From Oceanispirochaeta sp. (GTDB lineage Bacteria; Spirochaetota; Spirochaetia; DSM-2461): DNA of 64,000 nucleotides. The stretch is from NCBI GenBank assembly GCA_963663385.2, contig CAXXXD010000004.1, forward strand, positions 480,001 through 544,000, written 5' to 3'. Under the pieces are notes generated by a model. The model searched no databases, was not told the DNA's origin, and worked only from the letters and a program-made list of their open reading frames with translations. The position numbers and the translations under genes were made by a program. Below are positions 1,611-15,351 of the stretch, one piece after another. How positions within the stretch are numbered: the first letter of the stretch is position 1; the number at the start of each line of letters is the position of its first letter.

Positions 1611-2153
1611 ATGGCCAGGATATATCAGTTTCCCCATGATAAGCTTGAGTTGGATCTGTCCGCCCTGGCGGCGGGAGATCTGGCATATGATATTTTCCAG
1701 TTTCCCAAAAGCTGGATTCAGAAATCTTCCTGCAGTGAAGAAGATAAAAAGGACCTCCTTCCGGTTTTTGTCGATATTTTTTCTCTCCATCACCATTTTC
1801 AGGATGGGGGGGTACTGTCTCTTGAAAAAGAACTGCCTCTAATTCATCACAGTTTTCTGGGGGAAGGGATTCAAATGCTTCTTAACGGGACCTCTCCGGA
1901 AGAAATTGATCACAGGATGACAGGGAAGATCCGTTCGAGTCTCTGTTCCGGACGAAATCTGCTGGAAAAATTATTAATCAGAACGGGAATTCTCAGTATG
2001 GCAGTCGGGAATCTTCCCGGTACCACTCATACCCTTCTGATGGACCTTTTTGACTTTGAGGACCCGACTTGTGTTGTCGATATCCTTTTAAATGCTCTCA
2101 TGGGCAACGGACGGTCTGAGCAGGCTGAGATAATCCCTTTTGAATCCTGCTGA
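1611..2153 (+). CDS. Hypothetical soluble protein resembling MotA cytoplasmic segments
   Basis: AAGGAG RBS and TATAAT at 1573-1578; GVLSLEKEL..FLGEGIQMLLNGTSPEEI and IRTGILSMAVGNLP resemble the MotA cytoplasmic loop and C-tail; no clear TM helices. Confidence 0.55.
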   Translation: MARIYQFPHDKLELDLSALAAGDLAYDIFQFPKSWIQKSSCSEEDKKDLLPVFVDIFSLHHHFQDGGVLSLEKELPLIHHSFLGEGIQMLLNGTSPEEIDHRMTGKIRSSLCSGRNLLEKLLIRTGILSMAVGNLPGTTHTLLMDLFDFEDPTCVVDILLNALMGNGRSEQAEIIPFESC

Positions 2154-2165
2154 TATTTTCTCTTA

Positions 2166-3464
2166 TTAATTCAATTCCCCTGTCGTATCAAGGTAGAGCA
2201 TACCCCATCCTCTTTGAAGGTACTTGAGGGTCGTCAGTTTGAATTCTCTTTTTGTATTTGTAAGCTCAAGCCCCAACCTGATCTCCTCCCTACGGGAATC
2301 CTCAACCATCTTGATCTCTGCGGCTCTTATATATTCCTGTTTCTGACTTTTTATCACCCTGTAGGAACGTCTGCGGTAGGGGGTCCCGGCCATTCCCGTC
2401 ATATGAATCATCTTCAACCGGTTAAGAGGCCTTTCCCTGTAGGAGAGGAATCCTGAAGGGAGTTTTTCATCTGTTCCGTTCAGAATCTCAACCGGTCCCA
2501 GGGTCGGACTTACAGTGGCAAACAGTTCCCGCAGCTTGTAGGAGGTGGGCCATGTTCCCGATGTGGTATTGCGAAGGGTGTTCAGGATAATGGGAAGACC
2601 GGAAAATCGTGTGGAGCCTGATGTAATCTGAGGGGCTCCATCCTTTACCATATTCAGGCATAACCCATCCTCTCCCCAGGGAAGCATGGCTATGAATGTA
2701 TTCACGCCATGAGTCCGGGAGGCCCCTTTTAACAGCTGTGTCTGCCCGGATTGCCATAACAGGAGCGGGTTGGCCTCTATTGTTTCTCGGTTTCGGATGT
2801 AGCCATCCCCGCAGCAGAACAGAAGGGGTTTTTCCGGCAGGACGGAAGATATCTCGTTCCATTGTCCGGACAGGGGCTGTTTAAGCACAGTATTGATTAA
2901 CAGCTTATTCTCTTTTACAAGATAGGGCTGGTAATCTTCGACTTCCGGTGTAATGAAGTGAAAGGCTCCGGATTTTACCCTCTCCAGGCTTCGGGCCAGA
3001 TCTTCCTCCAGATCCGGCTTCAGGGGCGAGTAGTAGGCATTTATGGCAATCTCCCTGATCCCTTTTTTCTGAAATCCCTCCAGAAGCTTTTTTGCTTCTT
3101 TATTGCAATCCTCCCGGATATAGGCCAGTGTCAGACTGCACCCGGAAGACCCCACCCTGTTCATAAACTGCATCGGGGCCGAATAATCTCTACTGAGCTG
3201 AAGGTAGGCAATCTTTCTGTCGGGGTCTTTGACGAGACGGGAAAAGAGGCCCTGAATTTCATTCAGAATGATAACGGCTTTTATCTGGGATAAATTCAGT
3301 TTGTGATAACACAGAAAATCCTGAATAAAACAGGGAAGAGGCAAATCCTTCTTTCTTTCTCTTTCGCGGGAGTAGAATATCATCCCGTTTATTCCAAAGC
3401 CGATCTGTAATGTTTCATCTCTGAGGATGAGATACAGATAGCCCTTAAAAGTAATAGGATTCAT
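2166..3464 (-). CDS. Highly diverged hydantoinase/oxoprolinase-like protein (probable pseudo-enzyme)
   Basis: IAINAYYSP..E, ENKLLINTVL, CGDG and SGQTQLLKGA align with VAITSVFSP..E, ENATILNASL, QNDG and CGPTNSIRGA of 8636-10189; DVGGT motifs absent; start chosen at the ATG at 3464 (uncertain). Confidence 0.6.
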   Translation of the reverse strand: MNPITFKGYLYLILRDETLQIGFGINGMIFYSRERERKKDLPLPCFIQDFLCYHKLNLSQIKAVIILNEIQGLFSRLVKDPDRKIAYLQLSRDYSAPMQFMNRVGSSGCSLTLAYIREDCNKEAKKLLEGFQKKGIREIAINAYYSPLKPDLEEDLARSLERVKSGAFHFITPEVEDYQPYLVKENKLLINTVLKQPLSGQWNEISSVLPEKPLLFCCGDGYIRNRETIEANPLLLWQSGQTQLLKGASRTHGVNTFIAMLPWGEDGLCLNMVKDGAPQITSGSTRFSGLPIILNTLRNTTSGTWPTSYKLRELFATVSPTLGPVEILNGTDEKLPSGFLSYRERPLNRLKMIHMTGMAGTPYRRRSYRVIKSQKQEYIRAAEIKMVEDSRREEIRLGLELTNTKREFKLTTLKYLQRGWGMLYLDTTGELN

Positions 3465-4536
3465 ATAAGCGCTCCAGAGGGATATATTCATTGTTGTATC
3501 CGAAACATCCCGGTCCTATAAGATCCAGCATGGATCGGCTTTTTAACCGTACCGGAGCGGGTATACTCAGAACGGCAACTTTCATTCCCCTGTTCAGCTC
3601 ATGCTGCGATACAATCCTCAGAGTGCTGATATCTATCAGGCAGATAAGATCGGGTACCATTACAGCAATATTCCTGTCCCTGAAACCGATCAGGTATTCA
3701 TTCTGCAGAAGGATGGTAAAGCGGGATTTTTTGTAATTCCCGACACCTTCTATATTGAATTCCTGCCAGTTATGTTCTGTTCTGGCGGGTCTGTCTTTGA
3801 CCGTTCCTATAAACAGTTCGACAATACTTCCGTACTGGGAGTTCTTGGAGGTATTCAGGAGGCTCTCAAACAGCTCGCTATAGGATTTTTTATTGAGAAA
3901 ACAGCTCCCGATTCTATAGAGAAAAGAGATTGTTTCTGGAATCAGGCATTTTTTCAGGATTTTTTCAGTTGTACTGAATCCGGCAAAATAGGCTACCCCT
4001 GCCTCATCACTGACAATTTCCCTTGACTTAACCTCAAATAACAGGTTGTTCAGGTCCTCAAAGGCAAAATAATTCCCCCCGGGGGTCATAATGGAAAAGG
4101 GGGTCATTTTGATTCCGGCAGACTGGGCGGTGGTCATCTGAAACTCCGGAAAGGCCCTGGCCATGCAGTCGCCGTCTATTAAAGGTACACCCTTCATGGA
4201 CGCCAGGAGAACCGGGTAGAGGACATTGATGCTGGCGGCTTCGAGTGTGAATAAACCGTCTATGCTGCAGTCGTTCTCCCGGGAAAACCTCTCCAGTACC
4301 TGCAGTCCCTCATTTCCCGTAGGAGGGTGGGCTTCCATCATGCTCCCCATAATTCCCGTTGTGGCATACCCTTTTTCCGCATCAAGTTCATTTATATTTA
4401 AAAGAGGAACTTTGACTTTTCTTAATCTGTCCGTTAAAAGCTGAATAAGAATCTCTATCTGTTCTCCTCCGCCGCAGCTGGTTAAAAGTGATCCGTAGTA
4501 GAGCGGTCTGATCCAGGATTCATCAATTAATTGCAT
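3445..4536 (-). CDS. Diverged DUF917-family protein
   Basis: RAFPEFQM, QNEYL, VPDLIC and GP.CFGY are collinear with 7542-8639; ATG overlaps the activator stop (TAATG). Confidence 0.85.
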   Translation of the reverse strand: MQLIDESWIRPLYYGSLLTSCGGGEQIEILIQLLTDRLRKVKVPLLNINELDAEKGYATTGIMGSMMEAHPPTGNEGLQVLERFSRENDCSIDGLFTLEAASINVLYPVLLASMKGVPLIDGDCMARAFPEFQMTTAQSAGIKMTPFSIMTPGGNYFAFEDLNNLLFEVKSREIVSDEAGVAYFAGFSTTEKILKKCLIPETISFLYRIGSCFLNKKSYSELFESLLNTSKNSQYGSIVELFIGTVKDRPARTEHNWQEFNIEGVGNYKKSRFTILLQNEYLIGFRDRNIAVMVPDLICLIDISTLRIVSQHELNRGMKVAVLSIPAPVRLKSRSMLDLIGPGCFGYNNEYIPLERLYESYYF

Positions 4537-6119
4537 TATATATCCTCCTCGGATAAGCGTCGGTAGAGGGTCGCAAGGCTGATGCCTAGGTGCCTGGCCA
4601 TGGCTTTTTTCCCGTCTGTGGTCTCTCCGTAAGTCTGGAGAAGAGATACCAGCTCTTCATGGGAAATCCGGTTCTTTTTCCTCCTCTGTACTGTTTTTTC
4701 CGCTGCGGCTTTTTTCCGCGGATGAAAGAGGATGGCCGGAGGGAGATCCTCTTTTTCTATCAGCTCGCCAGGGGTTATGGTCATGCAGTACTGGATCGTA
4801 TTTTCCAGTTCTCTTGTATTCCCCGGCCAGTCGTAATTTTTCAGTGTTTCCATGGCCTCATGGGAGAGGTATTTGAATGAGCCCATTGCGCAGGCATACT
4901 TCCGTATAAAATAGTGGGCCAGTTTCTCGACTTCCTCCCTGTGTTCTCTCAGGCTTGGGAGGTTCAGGGGAATGACATTCAACCTGTAATAGAGGTCGCT
5001 TCTAAAACGGCTGTCTTCGATAAACTGTTCCAGATTCTTATGGGTGGCGCTGATAAAACGGACATCTGCCCTGATTGTTCTATGCCCGCCCAGGGGTTCG
5101 AACTCTTTTGTCTGAATAACCCTGAGCAGCTTTGCCTGGAGGGCAGGGGTCATATCCCCGATCTCATCCAGAAATACAGTACCCCCGTGGGCTATTTCCA
5201 GTTTACCCTTTCTTCCTCCCGAATCGGCACCGGTAAAAGCGCCTCTTTCATATCCGAAGAGTTCACTCTCCAGCAGGGCTTCCGGGATTGCCGCACAGTT
5301 TATGGCTACAAAGGGGTATTCCTTGCGCAGGGATACATTGTGGATGGCCCTGGCAAACTGTTCTTTTCCTGTCCCGCTTTCTCCTCTGATCAGTATGGAA
5401 GAGTCTGTAACGGCGGCCCTCACAGCTATGCTGATACAGTGTCTGAGCTGGGGGCTGTCTCCAATGATCTTCTGAAACCCGGAAGCTTTTTTGATGGCCG
5501 TATCAATACCGTTTGCTGTTTCTCCGGAAAAAGGGGTCCCCAGAATCATCCGGCCGATAAATGTATCTTCCCTGTAAAAATTATAGAGCCGGAGTTTGAG
5601 GGGGGATGTCCCGCCCAGCAGTATGGTATAGCTTTCGGAGGTCTCAATATTTTTGTCCTCCGATTCGGCGCAGTAATCGAAAAACCTTTCGGATAAATGC
5701 CATTTCCGGGCCGTCGGATTTTCATAATGGAGGATATTTCCTTTTTGAAGCAGTACAATACCTTTTTCACTCTCATTTGCTATTACTTCGATAACCTGGC
5801 TGAAGTAATGATTTTTCCAGTGTTCGATTCTGATCTCTTCCTGTTCTGTCAGGAGGCGACTGCAGAAAAGAAGGTGGCTTATTTCCTTTGAGGATTTGTT
5901 TTCCATATCCAGCCGGTTGTTGAAACTCCAATAGACAGAGTATTCCGAGGCGGTCAGGGTTGGGGGGACAAACAGGCTCCCCGTATCGCTGCTGACCGAA
6001 ACTGAGGTTTCAGCCCTCTCATGGGCAGTTGCTTTCCGAACTTTAATGCGGCAGTCGAAATATCGTTCCAGAGAATACCGGGTTTCCTGATTCATTGGTT
6101 TATCATAACTTATTTGCAT
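4536..6119 (-). CDS. Sigma54-dependent transcriptional activator (AAA+ bEBP with Fis-type HTH)
   Basis: GESGTGKE, ESELFGYERGAFTGA, FLDEIGD, WPGNTRELEN and C-terminal LGISLATLYRRL. Confidence 0.95.
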   Translation of the reverse strand: MQISYDKPMNQETRYSLERYFDCRIKVRKATAHERAETSVSVSSDTGSLFVPPTLTASEYSVYWSFNNRLDMENKSSKEISHLLFCSRLLTEQEEIRIEHWKNHYFSQVIEVIANESEKGIVLLQKGNILHYENPTARKWHLSERFFDYCAESEDKNIETSESYTILLGGTSPLKLRLYNFYREDTFIGRMILGTPFSGETANGIDTAIKKASGFQKIIGDSPQLRHCISIAVRAAVTDSSILIRGESGTGKEQFARAIHNVSLRKEYPFVAINCAAIPEALLESELFGYERGAFTGADSGGRKGKLEIAHGGTVFLDEIGDMTPALQAKLLRVIQTKEFEPLGGHRTIRADVRFISATHKNLEQFIEDSRFRSDLYYRLNVIPLNLPSLREHREEVEKLAHYFIRKYACAMGSFKYLSHEAMETLKNYDWPGNTRELENTIQYCMTITPGELIEKEDLPPAILFHPRKKAAAEKTVQRRKKNRISHEELVSLLQTYGETTDGKKAMARHLGISLATLYRRLSEEDI

Positions 6120-6213
6120 TATTTTCTCAAATATAGGTTTAATTTGGAAATGAGAAAAATGAGAAATTTGATAATTTTAAGGTTGAAACCCCTGCTTTTG
6201 CAGGAAATAACAG

Positions 6214-6230
6214 TTGGCATGTTATTTGTA
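6214..6230 (+). promoter_or_regulatory. Sigma54 (-24/-12) promoter for the permease operon
   Basis: TTGGCAT-GTTAT-TTGTA versus consensus TGGCAC-N5-TTGCW; 38 bp upstream of the ATG at 6269; next to the bEBP gene. Confidence 0.75.
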
Positions 6231-6268
6231 TTAAGAGATTCCCAAGAAAAAAACGTGAGGTATTATTT

Positions 6269-7555
6269 ATGTCAAAACAGGATAAGGAAGGATTTGTAGA
6301 ACAGCATGCCCTTGATCAGATACCTGTGAACCAGAGAAAGAGCTGGCTGAGTATCGCCCTTATATGGGCCGGCGCTATGATCAGTGTTACATCCCTGATG
6401 GTCGGGGGAGCCCTGGTTTCCGGACTCACTCTCGGGAGGGCAATAGGGGCTGGTGTTGCAGGTTATCTGATCATTATGGCCTTTATGGTTTTTCAGGGGA
6501 TGCAGGGGGCTGACCTGGGCCGCCCGACTGTTGTAAATGCGGAATCGTCCTTCGGGAAACAGGGCGCCGGATTTGTTATTTCCTTTGTGCTGGGAGTCTC
6601 TGTAATGGGTTGGTTCGCCGTACAGACCTCTGTTGCGGGAGCTGCTTTTTCCGGTTTTATAGCAGAAATGGGCGGGTCCTTTCCCCTGTGGCTCTCCTCT
6701 CTTATCTGGGGGACAGTGATGCTGGTTACGGCCATTATGGGAATCAGGGCACTGGCGTATCTGAACTATATTGCTGTGCCGGCTCTGATTATTCTGGCGG
6801 TTGCAGGGACTGCAATGGCATTCAGGCAGTATGGCATTGAAGGTCTCTCTTCTGTGCAGCCGGCCGCCCCCTTTCCGTTTTTTAACGGTGTGGCTATTGC
6901 GGTAGGCGGTTTCGCGGTTGGCGGCGTTATTGCCGCTGACTACTCCCGTTATGCCAGAGACCGGAAAGGTTCCATGCTCTCTTCTGTTGTCGGTGTTCTG
7001 CCTCTCGGTATTATACTGATTGCCTCCGGGGCTGTTATGGCTGTAGTAGCCGGAACATACGATATAACTGCTGTTATATCCTCTCTGGGGTTTCCTGTTC
7101 TGGGGTTTCTCACTCTGATCCTGGCGACATGGACGACAAATGCCGTAAACGCCTATTCCGGAGGACTGGCTATTACCAGTATGTTTAACCTGGACAGCAG
7201 CAAAAGGGCTTTTGCCACGGCTGTAGCCGGAGGTATCGGAACGATTCTTGCGGTTCTGGGGTTCATCAGCCATTTTATCTCCTTCCTGACTGTTCTGACA
7301 GCAGGTATAACTCCCATTGCCGGTGTTATGATTGCCGATTACTGGATCAGGAACAGGGGGAACGCGGAGAACTGGGCTCCCGCAGAAGGGATTCACTGGG
7401 CCGGGATTACTGCCTGGCTGGCTGGAACATTTACCGGTTTGTTTTTTAAATGGGGAAGCAGCGCGATCAATGCCATTGTCGTGTCCGGTGTCTGTTTTCT
7501 GGTTCTGACTCTTATTGCCGATAAAAAGGAGAAACTGGCTGATGCGAATTCTTGA
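6269..7555 (+). CDS. NCS1-family nucleobase/hydantoin permease (CodB-like)
   Basis: About 12 hydrophobic segments; GWFAVQ, ADYSRYA, WTTNAVNAYS, PIAGVMIADY. Confidence 0.9.
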   Translation: MSKQDKEGFVEQHALDQIPVNQRKSWLSIALIWAGAMISVTSLMVGGALVSGLTLGRAIGAGVAGYLIIMAFMVFQGMQGADLGRPTVVNAESSFGKQGAGFVISFVLGVSVMGWFAVQTSVAGAAFSGFIAEMGGSFPLWLSSLIWGTVMLVTAIMGIRALAYLNYIAVPALIILAVAGTAMAFRQYGIEGLSSVQPAAPFPFFNGVAIAVGGFAVGGVIAADYSRYARDRKGSMLSSVVGVLPLGIILIASGAVMAVVAGTYDITAVISSLGFPVLGFLTLILATWTTNAVNAYSGGLAITSMFNLDSSKRAFATAVAGGIGTILAVLGFISHFISFLTVLTAGITPIAGVMIADYWIRNRGNAENWAPAEGIHWAGITAWLAGTFTGLFFKWGSSAINAIVVSGVCFLVLTLIADKKEKLADANS

Positions 7556-8639
7556 TGAAAAAGCGATAGAACATATAGCCCTCGGGGCTTCCCTTCTGGG
7601 TACCGGCGGAGGAGGGGATCCTCACATAGGTAAGCTGATGGCTCTGGATGCTATCCGCAAGTATGGACCGGTAACCCTTCTGTCGGCGGACGAACTGCCC
7701 GATGATGCTTTGATTGTCCCCTCCGCCATGATGGGCGCCCCGGTTGTCATTATAGAAAAACTCCCTAACGGACAGGAGTTTATACATGCCTTCAAAGGTC
7801 TGGAAGGTGTTCTCGGGAAGAAAGTATATGCCACCATACCCATTGAGGCGGGGGGGGTGAACTCCATGATCCCCATTGCCGTGGCGGCTCAGCTGGGAAT
7901 TCCCCTGGTGGATGCCGACGGAATGGGCCGGGCCTTTCCGGAACTGCAGATGGTTACCTATCATCTGGATGAGATCCCTGCCAGTCCCATGGTTATTGCG
8001 GATGAAAAAGGGAATACGGTTATTCTCAATACCATAACCAATAACTGGGCGGAAGAGCTGGCCCGGGGGCTGACCGTTTCCATGGGCGCTTCTGTTATGA
8101 TCAGCATCTATCCCATGACAGGCCGGCAGGTTAAGGACTCTGCGATTCTGAATATAATGAGCTTTTCAGAGGATATCGGCAGGATCATTATGGAGGGCCG
8201 GGAGAAGAATATCCTTCCCCTGGATGAAATCCTTGAGATTACCAGCGGGTATGCCCTGTTTAAAGGGAAAATCACCGATGTGGAACGCAAGCTGGAAGGC
8301 GGCTTCAACAGGGGGCTGTGCAAACTGAGCGGAGTGGACGACTGCAGAGATCAATCCATGGATATTGACTTCCAGAACGAAAATCTTATTGCGACCAGAG
8401 ACGGACAGGTGGTTGCCACTGTTCCCGATCTTATCTGCATTGTCGATCTGGATACTATGGTGCCCATTACGACGGAATCCCTGAAATACGGACAGAGGGT
8501 TCTTGTTCTGGGGATCCCCTGCGATGCCAAATGGCGGACACCCAAAGGACTGGCGACGGTTGGTCCCCGTTATTTCGGCTATGATCTCGAATATGTGACA
8601 ATTGAAAAACTGGCCGGCAGGAAGGAGGTCCTTGTATGA
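7542..8639 (+). CDS. DUF917-family protein
   Basis: GTGGGGDP, MGAP, EAGGVN, DADGMGRAFPELQM, QNENL, VPDLI; AGGAG RBS before the ATG at 7542. Confidence 0.9.
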   Translation: MRILDEKAIEHIALGASLLGTGGGGDPHIGKLMALDAIRKYGPVTLLSADELPDDALIVPSAMMGAPVVIIEKLPNGQEFIHAFKGLEGVLGKKVYATIPIEAGGVNSMIPIAVAAQLGIPLVDADGMGRAFPELQMVTYHLDEIPASPMVIADEKGNTVILNTITNNWAEELARGLTVSMGASVMISIYPMTGRQVKDSAILNIMSFSEDIGRIIMEGREKNILPLDEILEITSGYALFKGKITDVERKLEGGFNRGLCKLSGVDDCRDQSMDIDFQNENLIATRDGQVVATVPDLICIVDLDTMVPITTESLKYGQRVLVLGIPCDAKWRTPKGLATVGPRYFGYDLEYVTIEKLAGRKEVLV

Positions 8640-10189
8640 GTTACAAGCTTGGAATCGATGTTGGGGGAACCAATACGGATGCGGTGCTGATTGATGATCA
8701 GAACCGTATCCTCTCCCAGATAAAAACCCCGACTACCGAAGATGTTATGACCGGTATTAACCGGGCGGTTCTCTCTGTTCTGGATCAGGTGGATATTAAA
8801 CGGCAGGATATCGGACATGCCATGCTGGGGACAACCCACTCAACCAATGCCATTGTTACCAGAAAGCATCTTCTCAAGACCGGAGTGCTCCGGATCGGCA
8901 AGCCTGCCACCATGTGTATCGAGCCCATGACTGACTGGCCCCGGGAGCTGCTGGAAGCCGCCAGCTGCGGAACCTATATGATTACCGGCGGTCATGAATT
9001 CGACGGCCGGGAGATTTTCCCCCTGGATGAGGAGGAAATCCGGCAGGCCTGTGCCGATATGAAAGGCCGGGTAGAGGCTGTTGCTATTACCAGTGTGTTC
9101 TCTCCTGTTTCATCAGCCCATGAAACCAGAGCCATGGAGATCGTGAAGGAGTCCCTGGGGGATATCCCCGTGACGGTTTCAAATGAGATTGCTTCAATCG
9201 GTATCCTGGAAAGAGAAAATGCCACTATCCTGAATGCTTCCCTGAATAAGGTGGCCCGGACTATGGCGGAAGGTTTTCATAAGGCTCTCAAAGAGGCGGA
9301 TGTTACGGATGCGGAAGTCTATATCTGCCAGAACGACGGAACCCTTATGAATATGGATTACGCGGTTGAGTATCCTGTTCTCACCATCGCCTGCGGCCCG
9401 ACCAACAGTATCCGGGGCGCTTCATTCCTGAGTGGAAAAAAGGATGCCATTGTTCTGGATGTGGGAGGTACGACAAGCGATATCGGTGTTATAAAGGGCG
9501 GTTTCCCCCGGGAATCATCCCTGGCTGTTGAAATCGGCGGCGCCCGGACGAATTTCCGTATGCCCGACCTGAACTCCATCGGTCTGGGGGGCGGGACCAT
9601 TATTCACCGGAATGGCGACAGTTTTACTGTCGGTCCCGACAGTGTGGGGTATCAGATTACGGAAAGAGCCCTTGTTTTCGGCGGTGATACCCTGACGGCT
9701 ACGGATATTATTGTACGCCTCGGGATGTCCGATATAGGAGATCCATCCCTTGTTTACCATATGGACCGGGATTTTGCCCGGGCGGTTTTCGACCGGATGA
9801 TGGAGACCGTAAGCAACGGGATCGACCGGATGAAGCTTTCGAAAGATCCTGTTCCGGTTGTTCTGGTCGGAGGAGGCAGTATTCTGATAGGAGATACCAT
9901 TGAAGGTGTGGCCGATCTTATCCGTCCGGAGAATTTCGGCGTGGCCAATGCCCTGGGCGCTGCGATCTCTCAGGTCAGCGGTCAGATTGAGAGGGTGTAC
10001 TCTCTGGATCAGATCCCCCGGGAAGAAGCAATGGCGGACGCCCGGAAAACTGCCGTGGATGAAGCCGTTAAGGCAGGAGCGGAAGAGTCTACCATTTCCA
10101 TTGTGGAAGTGGATGATGTGCCCCTTGCGTATCTGCCAGGCAATGCTACCCGCATCCGTGTAAAAGCTGTAGGATTCCTTAAAAAATAA
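8636..10189 (+). CDS. Hydantoinase A/5-oxoprolinase-family ATP-dependent protein
   Basis: GIDVGGTNTD, GTTHSTNA, ERENATILNA, GPTNS, DVGGTTSD, SIGLGGG, GPDSVG; ATGA overlap with DUF917. Confidence 0.92.
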   Translation: MSYKLGIDVGGTNTDAVLIDDQNRILSQIKTPTTEDVMTGINRAVLSVLDQVDIKRQDIGHAMLGTTHSTNAIVTRKHLLKTGVLRIGKPATMCIEPMTDWPRELLEAASCGTYMITGGHEFDGREIFPLDEEEIRQACADMKGRVEAVAITSVFSPVSSAHETRAMEIVKESLGDIPVTVSNEIASIGILERENATILNASLNKVARTMAEGFHKALKEADVTDAEVYICQNDGTLMNMDYAVEYPVLTIACGPTNSIRGASFLSGKKDAIVLDVGGTTSDIGVIKGGFPRESSLAVEIGGARTNFRMPDLNSIGLGGGTIIHRNGDSFTVGPDSVGYQITERALVFGGDTLTATDIIVRLGMSDIGDPSLVYHMDRDFARAVFDRMMETVSNGIDRMKLSKDPVPVVLVGGGSILIGDTIEGVADLIRPENFGVANALGAAISQVSGQIERVYSLDQIPREEAMADARKTAVDEAVKAGAEESTISIVEVDDVPLAYLPGNATRIRVKAVGFLKK

Positions 10190-10299: not shown

Positions 10300-11757
10300 T
10301 CAGCGCTTCAGAAAGGCTTTTCTGGTCAAACCCAGTTCAGAGTAAATCCCCGTGTTTTCCCTTATGGGGTGAAACTCTTTTCTTGCGTTGTGATCCATCT
10401 CTGCCCACAGGGCATCGTAGGACGGCGTTTTATTCAGCGCTGTCATCCCGTTCATCCAGGCCCCTAGAGCTGTGGCTTCTCCGTTTCCCCAGGCCGTCAC
10501 TGATTTGTTATAGCAGTCCGCCTGGATCTGGTTGTACAGGTCGAAACGGGTCATGCCGCCGGAAACCGACACCTCTTCAATGGGGCCTGTCATCTTCTCG
10601 ATGGCCTTCAGCTGCTCCCCGAGTTCCATGGCTATGCCTTCCAGAACGGCGCGGGCCATGTCCCCCCTTGTCGTATTCAAGTCCAGGTTGAGATAAGCCC
10701 CTTTCAAGGCTCTTTCGCCGCTGATCCCTTTAAAATGGGGAATCAGAATTACCCCGTTTGAGCCGACCGGGGAGGTCCTGATCTCGCTGTCTATGAGGGA
10801 AAACCTGGTTTTTGCTTCCACATCAGGGTTCATGAAGGTTTCGCTGAACCAGCGGTAGATAGTTCCCGCCGTAAGCATATTGGCTTCGACGATATACTTT
10901 CCCGGGATGGCGGATATATTGCAGAAAATCTTTTCCTCCGGGTCGTGTACCACTTTGTCGGACAGGCCGATAACATAGGCCCCGGTTCCCGTATTAATGG
11001 CAACTTTCCCCGGGGAAGTGATCCCCAGACCCAGGGCCGCACACTGCTGATCCCCTCCTCCTGTTATGACGGGGGTTCCTTCGGGAAGGTTTGTCAGTTT
11101 TGCTGTTTCTTTTTTGAGAGAACCGCAGATACTTCCGGGAGGGACGACTTTCGGGAGCTGTTCCGCCTTGAGGGAAAAGAGTTCCAACAGGGAGGGGTCC
11201 CATCTTCTTCTCTTCAGGGAGTAGAGGTTGAATCGGCTTGCAATGGATTCATCCGTAATGAATTCCCCGGTCAGGAGGAACATGAGGTAGTCGTAAACCC
11301 CTGCCATTCTGGCTGTTTGTTCCGCTATTTCCGGACAGTTCCTTTTGATCCACAGCATCTTGACTGCAGAGAATACAGGGGACAGGGGGAGTCCTGTTTT
11401 GCGGTAGATCCGGCTGCTCGTTCCGCCCAGTTCCTCACAAAGGCTTTCTGTTCTCCTGTCCTGCCACATAATGGCGGGCATAAGCGGGTTCCCTTCTCTG
11501 TCAGCCGGGAAAACGGGTGACCGGAAGGCTGTCAGGCTGATGCCTTCCAGGGACTCCCCCTTTTCAGAAAGGTGGCGGCTGCAGTCTGACAGGATCTCCA
11601 GCAGAGACTGTTTCCAGGCAAGAGGATCCTGTTCAACACGGATCGTGTCCGGAAAACGGGGGCTGGTTGTTTTTTGGCTTGTAAAAACAGCACGTCCTCT
11701 TTCATCGAAAAGGATACCTCTCATGCTTGTTGTTCCCGTATCCAGGGACAGTATCAT
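10300..11757 (-). CDS. FGGY-family carbohydrate kinase
   Basis: LDTGTTS, WQDRR, GGGDQQCAALG, RAVLEG, VSGG and ATALGA motifs. Confidence 0.92.
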   Translation of the reverse strand: MILSLDTGTTSMRGILFDERGRAVFTSQKTTSPRFPDTIRVEQDPLAWKQSLLEILSDCSRHLSEKGESLEGISLTAFRSPVFPADREGNPLMPAIMWQDRRTESLCEELGGTSSRIYRKTGLPLSPVFSAVKMLWIKRNCPEIAEQTARMAGVYDYLMFLLTGEFITDESIASRFNLYSLKRRRWDPSLLELFSLKAEQLPKVVPPGSICGSLKKETAKLTNLPEGTPVITGGGDQQCAALGLGITSPGKVAINTGTGAYVIGLSDKVVHDPEEKIFCNISAIPGKYIVEANMLTAGTIYRWFSETFMNPDVEAKTRFSLIDSEIRTSPVGSNGVILIPHFKGISGERALKGAYLNLDLNTTRGDMARAVLEGIAMELGEQLKAIEKMTGPIEEVSVSGGMTRFDLYNQIQADCYNKSVTAWGNGEATALGAWMNGMTALNKTPSYDALWAEMDHNARKEFHPIRENTGIYSELGLTRKAFLKR

Positions 11758-11772
11758 TTGCTTCCTCTGTTA

Positions 11773-12465
11773 TTAATTTTGGCCATAATAGGCGTTTTTG
11801 CCATGTTTTCTTAAAAAGTGTTTATTCATCAGATCCTGCTGCATGGCGGAGCAGGCCGGGTTGATGCTCAGGCTGGATGCGGCCATAAAAGCCAGTTCCT
11901 CCAGCACCACCGAATTATGAACCGCATCTTCCGGGCTTTTCCCCCAGGTGAACGGACCGTGCGAACAGACCAGCACCGCGGGTACAAAGGCGGGGTCGAT
12001 ATTTCTGCTTCTAAAGGTTTCGACAATAACGTTTCCCGTTCTCAGTTCATATTCGTCTTTTATTTCCATTTCAGTCATTTTTCTGGTACAGGGGATCGGC
12101 CCGTAGAAATAATCCGCATGGGTTGTACCAAGAGCGGGGATGTCCCGTCCGGCCTGAGCCCAGGACGTACTGTTTCTTGAATGGGTATGAACAATTCCCA
12201 TGCACTCGGGAAAGGCTTTGTAGAGAGCCAGGTGGGTGGCCAGGTCGCTGGAGGGTTTGTATCTCCCCTCAACCACATTTCCATCCAGATCGCATACTAC
12301 CATATCTTCGGCTTTCATGGTTTCGTATTCTACACCGCTCGGTTTGATAATCACCAGTTTTTTTTCGCGGTCGATTCCGCTTACATTCCCCCATGTGTAG
12401 GTTACCAGGCCTTTCCGGGGGAGTTCGAGGTTTGCTTCGAAAACCCTTTTTTTCAGTTCATTCAT
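11773..12465 (-). CDS. araD: L-ribulose-5-phosphate 4-epimerase (AraD/UlaF)
   Basis: [49 protein letters not shown]. Confidence 0.95.
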
Positions 12466-13330
12466 CTGTGTATCCCCCTTCTTCCATTTTTTTCAGCATC
12501 CATTCCCGGGCTTTTTTTATTTCCAGAATCGGGTCGTCCGCCTTTTCGGTCCACATCTCAATAAGAAAGGGGCCTTTGTAATCAAGCTCGTTCAGCAAAC
12601 TGAAAAAGGCCGGGAAATCAACACAGCCCTCCCCGAAGGGAACTTCCTTGAACTGACCGTTAAATACTCCCGAGACTGCTTTTGTATCTTTCAGATGGAT
12701 GGCGGAAATCTGATGAATTCCTCTGGTGATTTCTTCTGTAATATCATTACCCCACGCACTGAGGTTCCCAATGTCCGGATAAACTGTAAACCAGGGGGAT
12801 GATATCTTCCGGGAGTATTCAAGAAAGCGGCTTATTGAATTCAGAAGAGGGTGATCCATGATTTCCATGCTGAGCATCACTTCCGCTTTGGCTGCCCAGT
12901 TTACGGCCTGCTTCAACCCGTTCAGGAAGTTTTCCCGCGTTCTGGCGTTGCCGGGGGTATAATATACATCATACCCGGCCAGCTGGATATTCCTGATGCC
13001 GAGGTCGACCGCCAGTTCGATTGCTTTTTTCATTATAACCAGAGCGGTTTTACGTGTTTCAGGATCTTCGCTGCCCAGAGGAAATTTCCGGTGCCCGCTC
13101 AGGCACATGGATGGAATTCTGACTCCCGTCTCGGCGATATTCTTAACGAGTTCAAGACGCTCTTCCTGTGTCCATTCGAGGCGTGCCAGGCGCCTGTCCG
13201 TTTCATCAATGGATATTTCAACAAAATCATAGCCGGTATCCCGGGCTATCTCCAGTTTCCGCCTCCATGTGGTTTCGGGAGGCAGGGCTTTTTCATATAT
13301 ACCCAGGGCCTGTTTGTCCAGATTGTACAT
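12458..13330 (-). CDS. ulaE: L-xylulose/L-ribulose-5-phosphate 3-epimerase
   Basis: [55 protein letters not shown]. Confidence 0.95.
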
Positions 13331-13339
13331 AAAATCTAC

Positions 13340-13990
13340 CTAGCTCCAGTATTTACGGATCTCATTTTTCCATGCTCTGGCTTCTGCTGCAGGATCTTCG
13401 GCATTCCGCAGGTTTCTGCCTACGATAAAGCATTTTACAGGGATATCTTTAAAAAGCTTGATGACATCAATTGTCAGACCGCCGGTAACAGATACTTCAA
13501 AACCCATCTCTGCCAGTTTCTTGACAACTTTCATATTTGCTTCACCCCAGGATCCTCCCGAGTTTAACGCATCCCGGCTCTGATGGTAGATTACCTGTTT
13601 GAGACCGATCTTTTTCCACTCTTCGGCTTCTTCGAAAGTCCAGTTGCCAAAAAGCTCAACCTGAACTTCCCCGCCCAGTTTTTCAGCAGCTTCTACTGCT
13701 TTGGCTTTGGTGGCGTTAGCGGCGTTGCACATCACGGTTACCCAGTCTGCACCTTTGGAGCATGCCATATCCGCCAGTTCGCCACCGGCATCGACTATCT
13801 TAAGATCCGCAACAATTGTGTTATCGGGGTACAGTGTTCTTATTGTCCTGATTGATTCTGCACCTGTTGAGAGACAGAGAAGAGTTCCCGCTTCTATAAC
13901 GTCCAGTTCAGGAGCAAGCACTCTGGTAGATTCCAGTGCTTCGCTTATGGTGAAATTATCTAATGCAACCTGTAATAGAGGTAACGGCAT
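13340..13990 (-). CDS. ulaD: 3-keto-L-gulonate-6-phosphate decarboxylase
   Basis: PLLQVALD, IEAGTLL, ADLKIVDAG, QVELFG, YHQSRDA, VTGGL, FIVGR. Confidence 0.93.
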   Translation of the reverse strand: MPLPLLQVALDNFTISEALESTRVLAPELDVIEAGTLLCLSTGAESIRTIRTLYPDNTIVADLKIVDAGGELADMACSKGADWVTVMCNAANATKAKAVEAAEKLGGEVQVELFGNWTFEEAEEWKKIGLKQVIYHQSRDALNSGGSWGEANMKVVKKLAEMGFEVSVTGGLTIDVIKLFKDIPVKCFIVGRNLRNAEDPAAEARAWKNEIRKYWS

Positions 13991-14176
13991 GATTCACTCC
14001 TTTATTTCATCAATAGATATGATTATTAAACAATCAAAACGAACATATTGTCAAGTGATACTTTCGTTTGAAATGGGTCTGATTTGACAGGAGTACACTC
14101 CAATATCTTTGTATATAGGTAAATATGTCTATATTTTAATAGGGTTACGTTGTTTGTTATCTTTTTTAATATATTT

Positions 14177-14231
14177 CAAATGATCAAAATGATTATTATG
14201 AGTTGACAAATGATCATTTCGGTGGGACAAT
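14177..14231 (+). promoter_or_regulatory. Sigma70 promoter of ulaG overlapped by DeoR-like operator repeats
   Basis: TTGACA (14203-14208), 17 bp, TGn-GACAAT (14226-14231); CAAATGATCA at 14177 and 14207. Confidence 0.7.
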
Positions 14232-14286
14232 GAATCATTCAATGCATAAAAAATGAGGGATTATCCATTAATTCATAGGAGACATA

Positions 14287-15351
14287 ATGAGTAAGGTAGA
14301 TGAAATTACGCGAGAGTCCTGGATTCTTAATACATTCCCCGAGTGGGGGACCTGGCTGAATGAAGAGATTGAAGCCGAAGATGTAAAACCCGGGACCGTA
14401 GCCATGTGGTGGCTGGCCTGCACCGGTATGTGGATTAAATCGGAAGGCAATACCAATATTTGTATTGACCTGTGGACCAAGACAGGGAAAAGATCCCAAT
14501 CCAACCCCTGGATGAAGGATCAGCACCAGCATCAGAGGATGATAGGCTGTAAAAAACTGCAGCCCAACCTCCGGAATGTGCCCTGTGTCCTGGACCCCTT
14601 CGGGATTAAAAATGTGGATGCCATTCTGGCTACCCATGACCATGGCGACCATATTGACGAGAATGTTGCCGCGGCTGTTCTGCAGAACTGCAGTGATGAC
14701 GTTCCTTTTATCGGGCCTCAGGCCTGTGTGGATCTCTGGATCGGCTGGGGTGTCCCCGAAAGCCGCTGCAGGGTGGTGAAGCCCGGCGATACGGTTAAGC
14801 TGGGAGATATTGAGATCATTGCCCTCGACTCCTTTGACAGAACAGAGCTGGTAACGGCTCCCGGAGGTGTTACTCTTAAGGGGAAAATGCCTCAGGACAT
14901 GGATCGCCTGGCTGTAAATTATCTGATTAAAACACCCGGAGGCAATATCTATCACAGCGGTGATTCCCACTACTCCAATTATTATGCCAAACATGGTAAT
15001 GATTACAAAATTGATGTGGCATTCGGTTCTTATGGTGAAAATCCCCGGGGGATGACCGATAAAATGACATCCGTGGATATTCTCAGAATGGCGGAATGCC
15101 TCAATACTCAGGTAGTAATCCCCTTTCACCATGATATCTGGACAAACTTTCAGGCGGATCCCGCCGAAATCAAGGTTCTGTGGCAGATGAGAAAGGATCG
15201 TCTTCAGTACAAGTTCAAACCCTATATCCTGCAGGTAGGCGGTAAATTCACCTTCCCTGACGATAAGGACAGGATGGAGTATCACTACCCCCGCGGGTTT
15301 GAAGATGCCTTTGCCATTGAACCGGATCTGCCCTTCCGTTCTATGCTCTAA
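14287..15351 (+). CDS. ulaG: L-ascorbate-6-phosphate lactonase (metallo-beta-lactamase fold)
   Basis: [56 protein letters not shown]. Confidence 0.96.

Follow-up and report, generated by a model that had tools for sequence, protein, structure and literature searches.

A 64,000-nucleotide stretch of an Oceanispirochaeta sp. genome (GCA_963663385.2, contig CAXXXD010000004.1, positions 480,001 to 544,000; hereafter the window) codes for a sigma54 activator, i.e. a bacterial enhancer-binding protein (bEBP), together with diverged copies of the two proteins, DUF917 and a hydantoinase-A-type ATPase, that make up the predicted enzyme of the facing operon. From their genomic associations we propose, with a probability of roughly 0.6, that these copies constitute a two-protein pseudo-enzyme, which senses the substrate of that operon and gates the bEBP in trans by protein contact. 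The system is real, conserved and apparently undescribed. Both copies evolve under purifying selection, the hydantoinase copy has lost its ATP loops, and the presence of the copies follows that of the sigma54 activator, not that of the enzyme operon in itself.

The locus and its diverged copies

The features of the locus are as follows (aa, amino acids):

2166..3464, minus strand: hydantoinase-A/oxoprolinase-fold copy, 432 aa, without both DxGGT ATP loops
3445..4536, minus strand: DUF917 (S-Me-THD-like) copy, 363 aa, predicted ligand-binding subunit
4536..6095, minus strand: sigma54 activator (bEBP) with a GAF-like segment, a PAS-like domain, an AAA+ domain with GAFTGA and a Fis-type helix-turn-helix (HTH)
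6102..6130, minus strand: sigma70-like site TTGAGA-17-TATGAT (10/12), candidate promoter of the activator operon
6124..6165, no strand assigned: TTCTCA/TGAGAA repeats (at 6124, 6151 and 6160), candidate activator-binding sites
6214..6230, plus strand: sigma54 -24/-12 promoter, with GT as its -12 element
6269..7555, plus strand: NCS1-family permease (cytosine permease-like)
7542..8639, plus strand: canonical DUF917 protein, predicted metal/substrate subunit of the enzyme
8636..10189, plus strand: canonical hydantoinase-A/oxoprolinase-type ASKHA ATPase, with both DxGGT loops present

The initial annotation had read this locus as a mirror image, with the bEBP and the two copies running leftwards and the permease and enzyme pair rightwards. 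This order and the strands were verified, as were the absence of internal stop codons from either copy and the overlapping junctions, which measure 1 nucleotide (nt) between the bEBP and the DUF917 copy, 20 nt between the copies, and 14 and 4 nt on the right side. Since the reading frames overlap, we predict that the bEBP and both copies are co-transcribed. The longest open reading frame (ORF) of the bEBP begins at 6119; its most likely start is 6095, because Met9 (counted from the 6119 start) is invariant in 9/9 rows and the upstream ATG shares sequence with a sigma70-like site. The protein is a bona fide bEBP, with an AAA+ domain (PF00158, 233 bits), Walker motifs, an HTH, and GAFTGA or GSFTGA in 9/9 rows. 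Its N-terminus is modeled as a small GAF-like segment and a PAS-like domain, with a middling best Z of 8.6. A joint fold of both copies with bEBP residues 8-200, which leave out the AAA+ domain, gave no answer (score 0.00, mark 0.32) and was not used as evidence.

The intact AAA+ core and HTH of the bEBP face a conserved sigma54 promoter with upstream repeats, and this is the groundwork for the mechanism proposed below. RpoN is encoded in the same genome (5.3 Mb), in which the sigma54 pattern has 19-22 matches, and the promoter of the locus adjoins the bEBP. The site is found in 9/9 related intergenic stretches, 26-50 bp 5' of the first gene, and its -12 element is GT in the window and in genome G009 and GC in the other 7/9 promoters compared. 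In 8/9 of these stretches the TTCTCA/TGAGAA repeats stand upstream of the sigma54 site in 2-4 copies, with a spacing of ~9-12 bp. Counts from the promoter and terminator scans are at chance level; for sigma70-like sites, 10 were found against 9.8 expected in shuffles, and the site at 6102-6130 is thus a candidate only.

The most likely start of the hydantoinase copy is 3464, which is matched by a database protein of exactly 432 aa. The copy aligns with the neighboring enzyme at 23% identity over 165 aa only (E 3e-5) and scores 12.7 bits against Pfam PF05378/PF01968, below the cut-off of 25.2, with weak matches in 7/13 members of its alignment. It is the profile comparison (hydantoinase-A type, probability 90) and the predicted fold, rather than the Pfam score, that identify it as a hydantoinase-A copy in which, as modeled, the ASKHA-type fold is kept. 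Its top fold matches are N-methylhydantoinase (NMHase), acetophenone and acetone carboxylase, and caprolactamase. The model, with a mean predicted local distance difference test (pLDDT) of 86, matches NMHase 9h03 with a Foldseek E of 1.5e-15 and the acetophenone carboxylase subunit 5l9w_b with a Z of 21.9 and a root-mean-square deviation of 5.2 over 413 aligned residues; a second structural match has a Z of 19.1 over ~412 residues.

The hydantoinase copy is ~85 aa shorter than the enzyme, chiefly through one internal deletion, which reduces enzyme residues 318-398 (81 residues) to 14, with ~65 residues missing. Both the phosphate-1 DxGGTxTD and the phosphate-2 DxGGT motifs are absent, and 22/22 of the best-ranked relatives (340-560 aa) likewise have no DxGGT loops and at most 14 of the 81 residues of segment 318-398. 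These loops form the ATP site of the caprolactamase CapA, in which D11A and D295A reduce product formation (available part of PMC8453981). The hydantoinase copies keep an E-N-x-L helix, a G-x-G turn and a tyrosine of the C-terminal region, which would be structural or interface residues. We predict from the model that this protein is an ATPase-dead scaffold or coupling subunit. The earlier statement that conserved motifs are altered stands for the ATP loops, which are lost, and falls well short of the actual divergence of this copy.

The DUF917 copy clearly belongs to its family (PF06032 and PF20906, 97.5 and 135.1 bits against a cut-off of 27) and is 27% identical to the neighboring canonical DUF917 protein over 361 aa. 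To define near-invariant positions, we used 93 canonical rows, gathered with the copy profile and assumed to be enzymes; 72 positions are conserved in at least 90% of these, and 38 of the 72 are retained in at least 90% of 23 copies, a few residue assignments near residue 70 hinging on gap placement. The retained residues include E101, N106, D123, D125, R129, E133, E170, R174, N278, E279 and D295, whereas losses affect the GxGGGG motif (its fourth glycine) with the loop that follows, the two glycines of EAGG, and R248, G257 and Y315. Given that this acidic/amide core is kept, a ligand or metal site probably survives in the DUF917 copy, and for the same reason the claim that both copies are inactive is to be limited to the hydantoinase copy.

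NCBIfam gives some relatives of DUF917 the name thiohydantoin desulfurase. Against the thiohydantoin and S-methyl-thiohydantoin desulfurase equivalogs, the DUF917 copy scores 28.3 (cut-off 440) and 26.5 (cut-off 450), and the canonical DUF917 gene 98.8 and 111.6 against the same cut-offs. As these are missed widely, an ergothioneine-type desulfurase assignment was rejected. The only solved DUF917 relative, 2o3i, is an unannotated hypothetical protein, and one preprint, in its available part, terms DUF917 proteins uncharacterized.

Conservation, distribution and descent of the copies

Synteny and the ratio of nonsynonymous to synonymous substitution rates (dN/dS) had been proposed as checks in the initial annotation, and neither of the refuting outcomes named there for them, copies in this genome only or neutral dN/dS, was observed. 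All six genes occur with the same layout in 8/9 related loci; in the ninth, at the end of a contig, the left-hand trio is present. Two of the nine, L069 and L070, are nearly the same and were taken as one; L070 shows a broken copy and a shortened activator frame, its twin L069 being intact. Relatives come from records with spirochaete names. Five pairs were compared for dN/dS, the fifth giving no dS, and the values are rough, with dS near saturation: in the four pairs the DUF917 copy has ratios of 0.05-0.12 and the hydantoinase copy ratios of 0.08-0.14, which indicates purifying selection and not neutrality. The activator has 0.07-0.16 and the enzymes 0.02-0.05, below the copies in most pairs.

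The copy system is rare in the genome samples of the phylum and class. Among 401 Spirochaetia genomes, a DUF917 match is present in 33 and the copy in seven (including the window's genome, G000), always together with the canonical gene. In the phylum-wide sample, no full-length hydantoinase copy was found in 400 genomes other than G000. Besides the enzyme and the copy, the window's genome has no further DUF917 gene; it encodes a second hydantoinase-like protein of 971 aa, without a DUF917 match (G000:C3 ~599600-602550, L196).

Enzyme operons without copies come with other regulatory surroundings. Of 26 neighborhoods from Spirochaetia with canonical DUF917 only, 22 were read, some on short contigs; 21 of the 22 are without a bEBP, without a sigma54 site in front of the genes and without a copy, and a PucR regulator stands in five. 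Among 11 hand-picked plasmid records, the two with an adjacent activator carry copies and the nine others have neither an adjacent bEBP nor a shortened hydantoinase copy, five of these being PucR- or TetR-led operons and one having an unrelated sigma54 regulator 2.3 kb downstream. A further 123 loci include 89 with a full-length hydantoinase and four with an AAA+ activator downstream; no full-length hydantoinase with degenerate loops was found in them, the two flagged rows lacking the N-terminus. As these loci are related to one another, the association of copies with the activator is a pattern and not a statistical test.

Outside the spirochaetes, copy-type proteins occur in records of Thermanaerosceptrum, Desulfosporosinus, Desulfitobacterium, Thermosediminibacterales, Peptococcaceae and Clostridia, and in six clostridial genomes or metagenome-assembled genomes the accessions of the two copies follow one another. 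A plasmid search with the Thermanaerosceptrum copy gave no match. For Desulfotomaculum reducens, the 10 activators in the supplement of PMC6615313, as far as available, could not be linked with the accession under which its DUF917 copy is filed. The Parageobacillus/Geobacillus plasmids (2/2 records) carry in tandem the activator, the DUF917 copy, a shortened hydantoinase copy, the permease, DUF917 and hydantoinase, with a perfect sigma54 site directly 5' of the copies in the one record of this type scanned. In Parageobacillus thermoglucosidasius the genes lie on plasmid pNCI001 (BCV53_RS19325-19350). The Geobacillus activator has an N-terminus with PAS only. The accompanying hydantoinase copy shows the same deletion as the window's, with milder loop changes (DVGET, DVGGSS), and may represent an intermediate state; proteins similar to it occur in Brevibacillus, and Cytobacillus has copies as well.

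In a quick tree of DUF917 proteins, 19/19 copy-like rows fall on one side of a split (SH-aLRT, an approximate likelihood-ratio test, 93), apart from the window's enzyme. A recent local duplication was rejected, given that the DUF917 copy and its neighbor lie far apart in this tree; judging from the phylogeny, both copies are old lineages and not local duplicates. A tree forcing all hydantoinase copies together came out 5.4 log-units higher, with a p-value of 0.76 in the approximately unbiased test (p-AU), which allows, and does not prove, a single old origin, with long branches in play. For the fuller scenario we would not quite give even odds: the two-subunit enzyme would have been duplicated early in Bacillota to yield a detachable receptor for a sigma54 activator, with intermediates ranging from near-intact ATP loops (Geobacillus, Brevibacillus) to none (clostridia, spirochaetes). 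Actinomycetota, too, have hydantoinase-A proteins that are shortened and changed in their ATP loops (clusters of 406-472 aa; Pseudonocardia; ESM Atlas hits; P0097, P0126, P0149, P0154 and P0155), which may be independent sensor copies and may reflect repeated reuse of the same sensor trick with other regulators.

Plasmids from lactobacilli, enterococci, Listeria, rhizobia and haloarchaea carry the permease-DUF917-hydantoinase operon itself. In haloarchaea, Nonomuraea, Rhodobacterales and Chloroflexota (L180, L179, L187, L022-L032), a single hydantoinase-A gene is accompanied by two to four DUF917 genes of the canonical type, suggesting that DUF917 subunits are swapped for different substrates; L179 (NZ_LT559118.1) is an 11.85-Mb Nonomuraea record filed as a plasmid and is most likely a chromosome. 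A 945-aa frame at 6093-8927 of L063 matches both the DUF917 and the hydantoinase-A profiles and is likely a fusion of the two, which supports a two-subunit enzyme. In Enterococcus raffinosus (L181, 1-10575), two tandem PucR-permease-DUF917-hydantoinase operons are followed by selenocysteine genes and a gene for a TudS-related desulfidase, a possible hint of a sulfur- or selenium-containing substrate.

On either side of the window's locus lie genes of other kinds. A 180-aa ORF (1611-2153, plus strand), with a weak likeness to MotA/PomA stators (E 1.7e-6, far below the cut-off), ends 12 bp from the stop of the hydantoinase copy and is missing at that position in the related loci read. At 10300-15351 is an ordinary, catabolic-looking set of the L-ascorbate/L-xylulose type, unrelated to the copies, with an FGGY kinase identified by Pfam and genes that we take to encode epimerases, a decarboxylase and a lactonase.

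The putative sensor and competing explanations

Under the proposed mechanism, the permease, going by its family, would import a small heterocycle, the ring of which would be opened jointly by the canonical DUF917 and hydantoinase-A proteins, with DUF917 replacing the missing metal-binding B subunit. The copy pair would assemble and bind the same substrate without the ATP-dependent step and would hold the ligand as a sensor: the DUF917 copy would bind it, and the ATP-dead partner would block turnover and couple the complex to the activator. The state of the ligand would then be passed to the N-terminal PAS/GAF-like region of the bEBP. As for the sign of control, we lean very slightly toward an inhibitor that is released by the substrate. 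In the Geobacillus-type plasmids, negative feedback might operate as with pspA, because the copies come first in the sigma54 operon. PucR and TetR regulators bind ligands themselves, and the copies are missing from the stretches read where these regulators occur; on the simplest account, the copies would supply the sensing for the bEBP.

Several points weigh against a sensor. The case for it is built from genomic evidence, and its association with the activator may reflect one or two events, as the cassettes are related by descent. Genome G042, the one exception among the 22 Spirochaetia neighborhoods, carries the promoter and the first part of the activator gene, within which its contig ends, and no copies were found in its assembly. 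What is known of the clostridial pairs is the adjacency of their accessions, not the regulator beside them. In Bacillales the hydantoinase copy shows only mild changes, and free hydantoinase trees set it apart from the other copies. Extra DUF917 genes also occur in operons without a bEBP (Haloferax, Nonomuraea, Qingshengfaniella, Chloroflexota). Finally, the bEBP could sense a ligand directly through its own PAS-like domain, and the DUF917 copy, which keeps all conserved acidic residues of the predicted core, may be catalytic.

The last two points would find a place in an arrangement in which the DUF917 copy, as an active hydrolase that needs no ATP, turns the compound brought in by the permease into the actual inducer (or destroys that compound), the bEBP binds this small molecule through its PAS domain, and the hydantoinase copy acts as a stabilizer. 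Catalytic-type residues are indeed kept in 21-23/23 DUF917 copies, and the relatives that bear the desulfurase name work without an ATPase partner. We consider this arrangement unlikely, in that the glycine loops invariant in 93/93 canonical rows are changed in most copies (G24 is kept in 5/23, G103 in 0/23 and G104 in 4/23) and a 430-aa partner under selection would be a costly stabilizer.

Somewhat less probable still is a role of the copies as accessory or regulatory subunits of the catabolic enzyme, or as a second enzyme for a related substrate, with a proximity to the activator that is merely historical. Acetophenone carboxylase, a related enzyme, has two ASKHA-type subunits (alpha and alpha'), operons with two or three DUF917 genes exist, and the position of the Geobacillus copies inside the induced operon fits a metabolic role, a further point against the sensor. 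In the spirochaetes, however, the activator gene and the copies form a coupled set on the strand opposite to the enzyme, the PucR/TetR-regulated operons have the same enzyme without copies, and the extra DUF917 genes of operons without a bEBP group in the DUF917 tree with the canonical proteins and not with the copies.

That the copies are decaying duplicates without function is hardly credible: the hydantoinase copy has diverged fast, being 24% identical from one spirochaete clade to another where the enzyme is 71% identical, but open frames of 420-460 aa persist across two phyla with a dN/dS of at most 0.14.

Precedents and implications

The initial annotation knew of no described system of this design, but there is a precedent. 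DhaQ is paralogous to the kinase subunit DhaK but inactive. In Lactococcus lactis, this substrate-binding partner activates a catabolic operon in complex with the DNA-binding regulator DhaS (the system of Christen et al. 2006), as described in PMC7590123. As in that system, the window's partners are paralogues of the regulated enzyme and are encoded beside the regulator; in contrast to it, they accompany a sigma54 AAA+ activator and represent both enzyme proteins, whereas DhaS is a TetR protein that operates with sigma70 and one partner. Since the DhaK and TetR families are not shared by the DUF917, hydantoinase-A and bEBP proteins of the window, a similar mode of working is possible without membership in that system.

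Other systems resemble the locus in part. DhaR of E. coli is a GAF-PAS-AAA+ activator that operates with sigma70 and is controlled in trans by DhaK and DhaL. It shares with the window the domain plan of the activator and the involvement of two enzyme subunits of the regulated pathway, but uses the working subunits rather than dedicated diverged copies and lacks the sigma54-type promoter. In the Gal3-Gal80-Gal4 system of yeast, Gal3 is an inactive paralogue of the first enzyme of the pathway and a ligand sensor that needs ATP; it is eukaryotic and of another fold, and its ATP requirement contrasts with the absence of ATP loops from the hydantoinase copy. PspA-PspF and NifL-NifA each unite a sigma54 activator with a co-encoded partner that gates it in trans, and pspA, like the Geobacillus copies, heads the activated operon; these partners differ in not being copies of the regulated enzyme and in sensing no catabolic substrate. 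At the level of the enzyme, N-methylhydantoinase, caprolactamase CapAB and the acetophenone and acetone carboxylases share their A-subunit fold with both the canonical gene and the copy and the DxGGT motif with the canonical gene only; they differ in having a B subunit, which is absent from the window's locus and whose place DUF917 would take.

We found no account of the altered copies in the literature covered, which leaves subscription journals mostly outside, and no paper giving the substrate of the permease-DUF917-hydantoinase operon. The available parts of a survey of Clostridiales sigma54 regulons name no hydantoinase in the main text and no hydantoinase or DUF917 in one supplement.

If the proposal is true, these copies would represent a new input route to sigma54 activators, in which a pseudo-enzyme complex reads the substrate with the enzyme's own pocket, and their diverse forms would provide a graded natural series of an enzyme becoming a sensor. 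The copies also offer a practical route to the substrate of the widespread permease-DUF917-hydantoinase operon.

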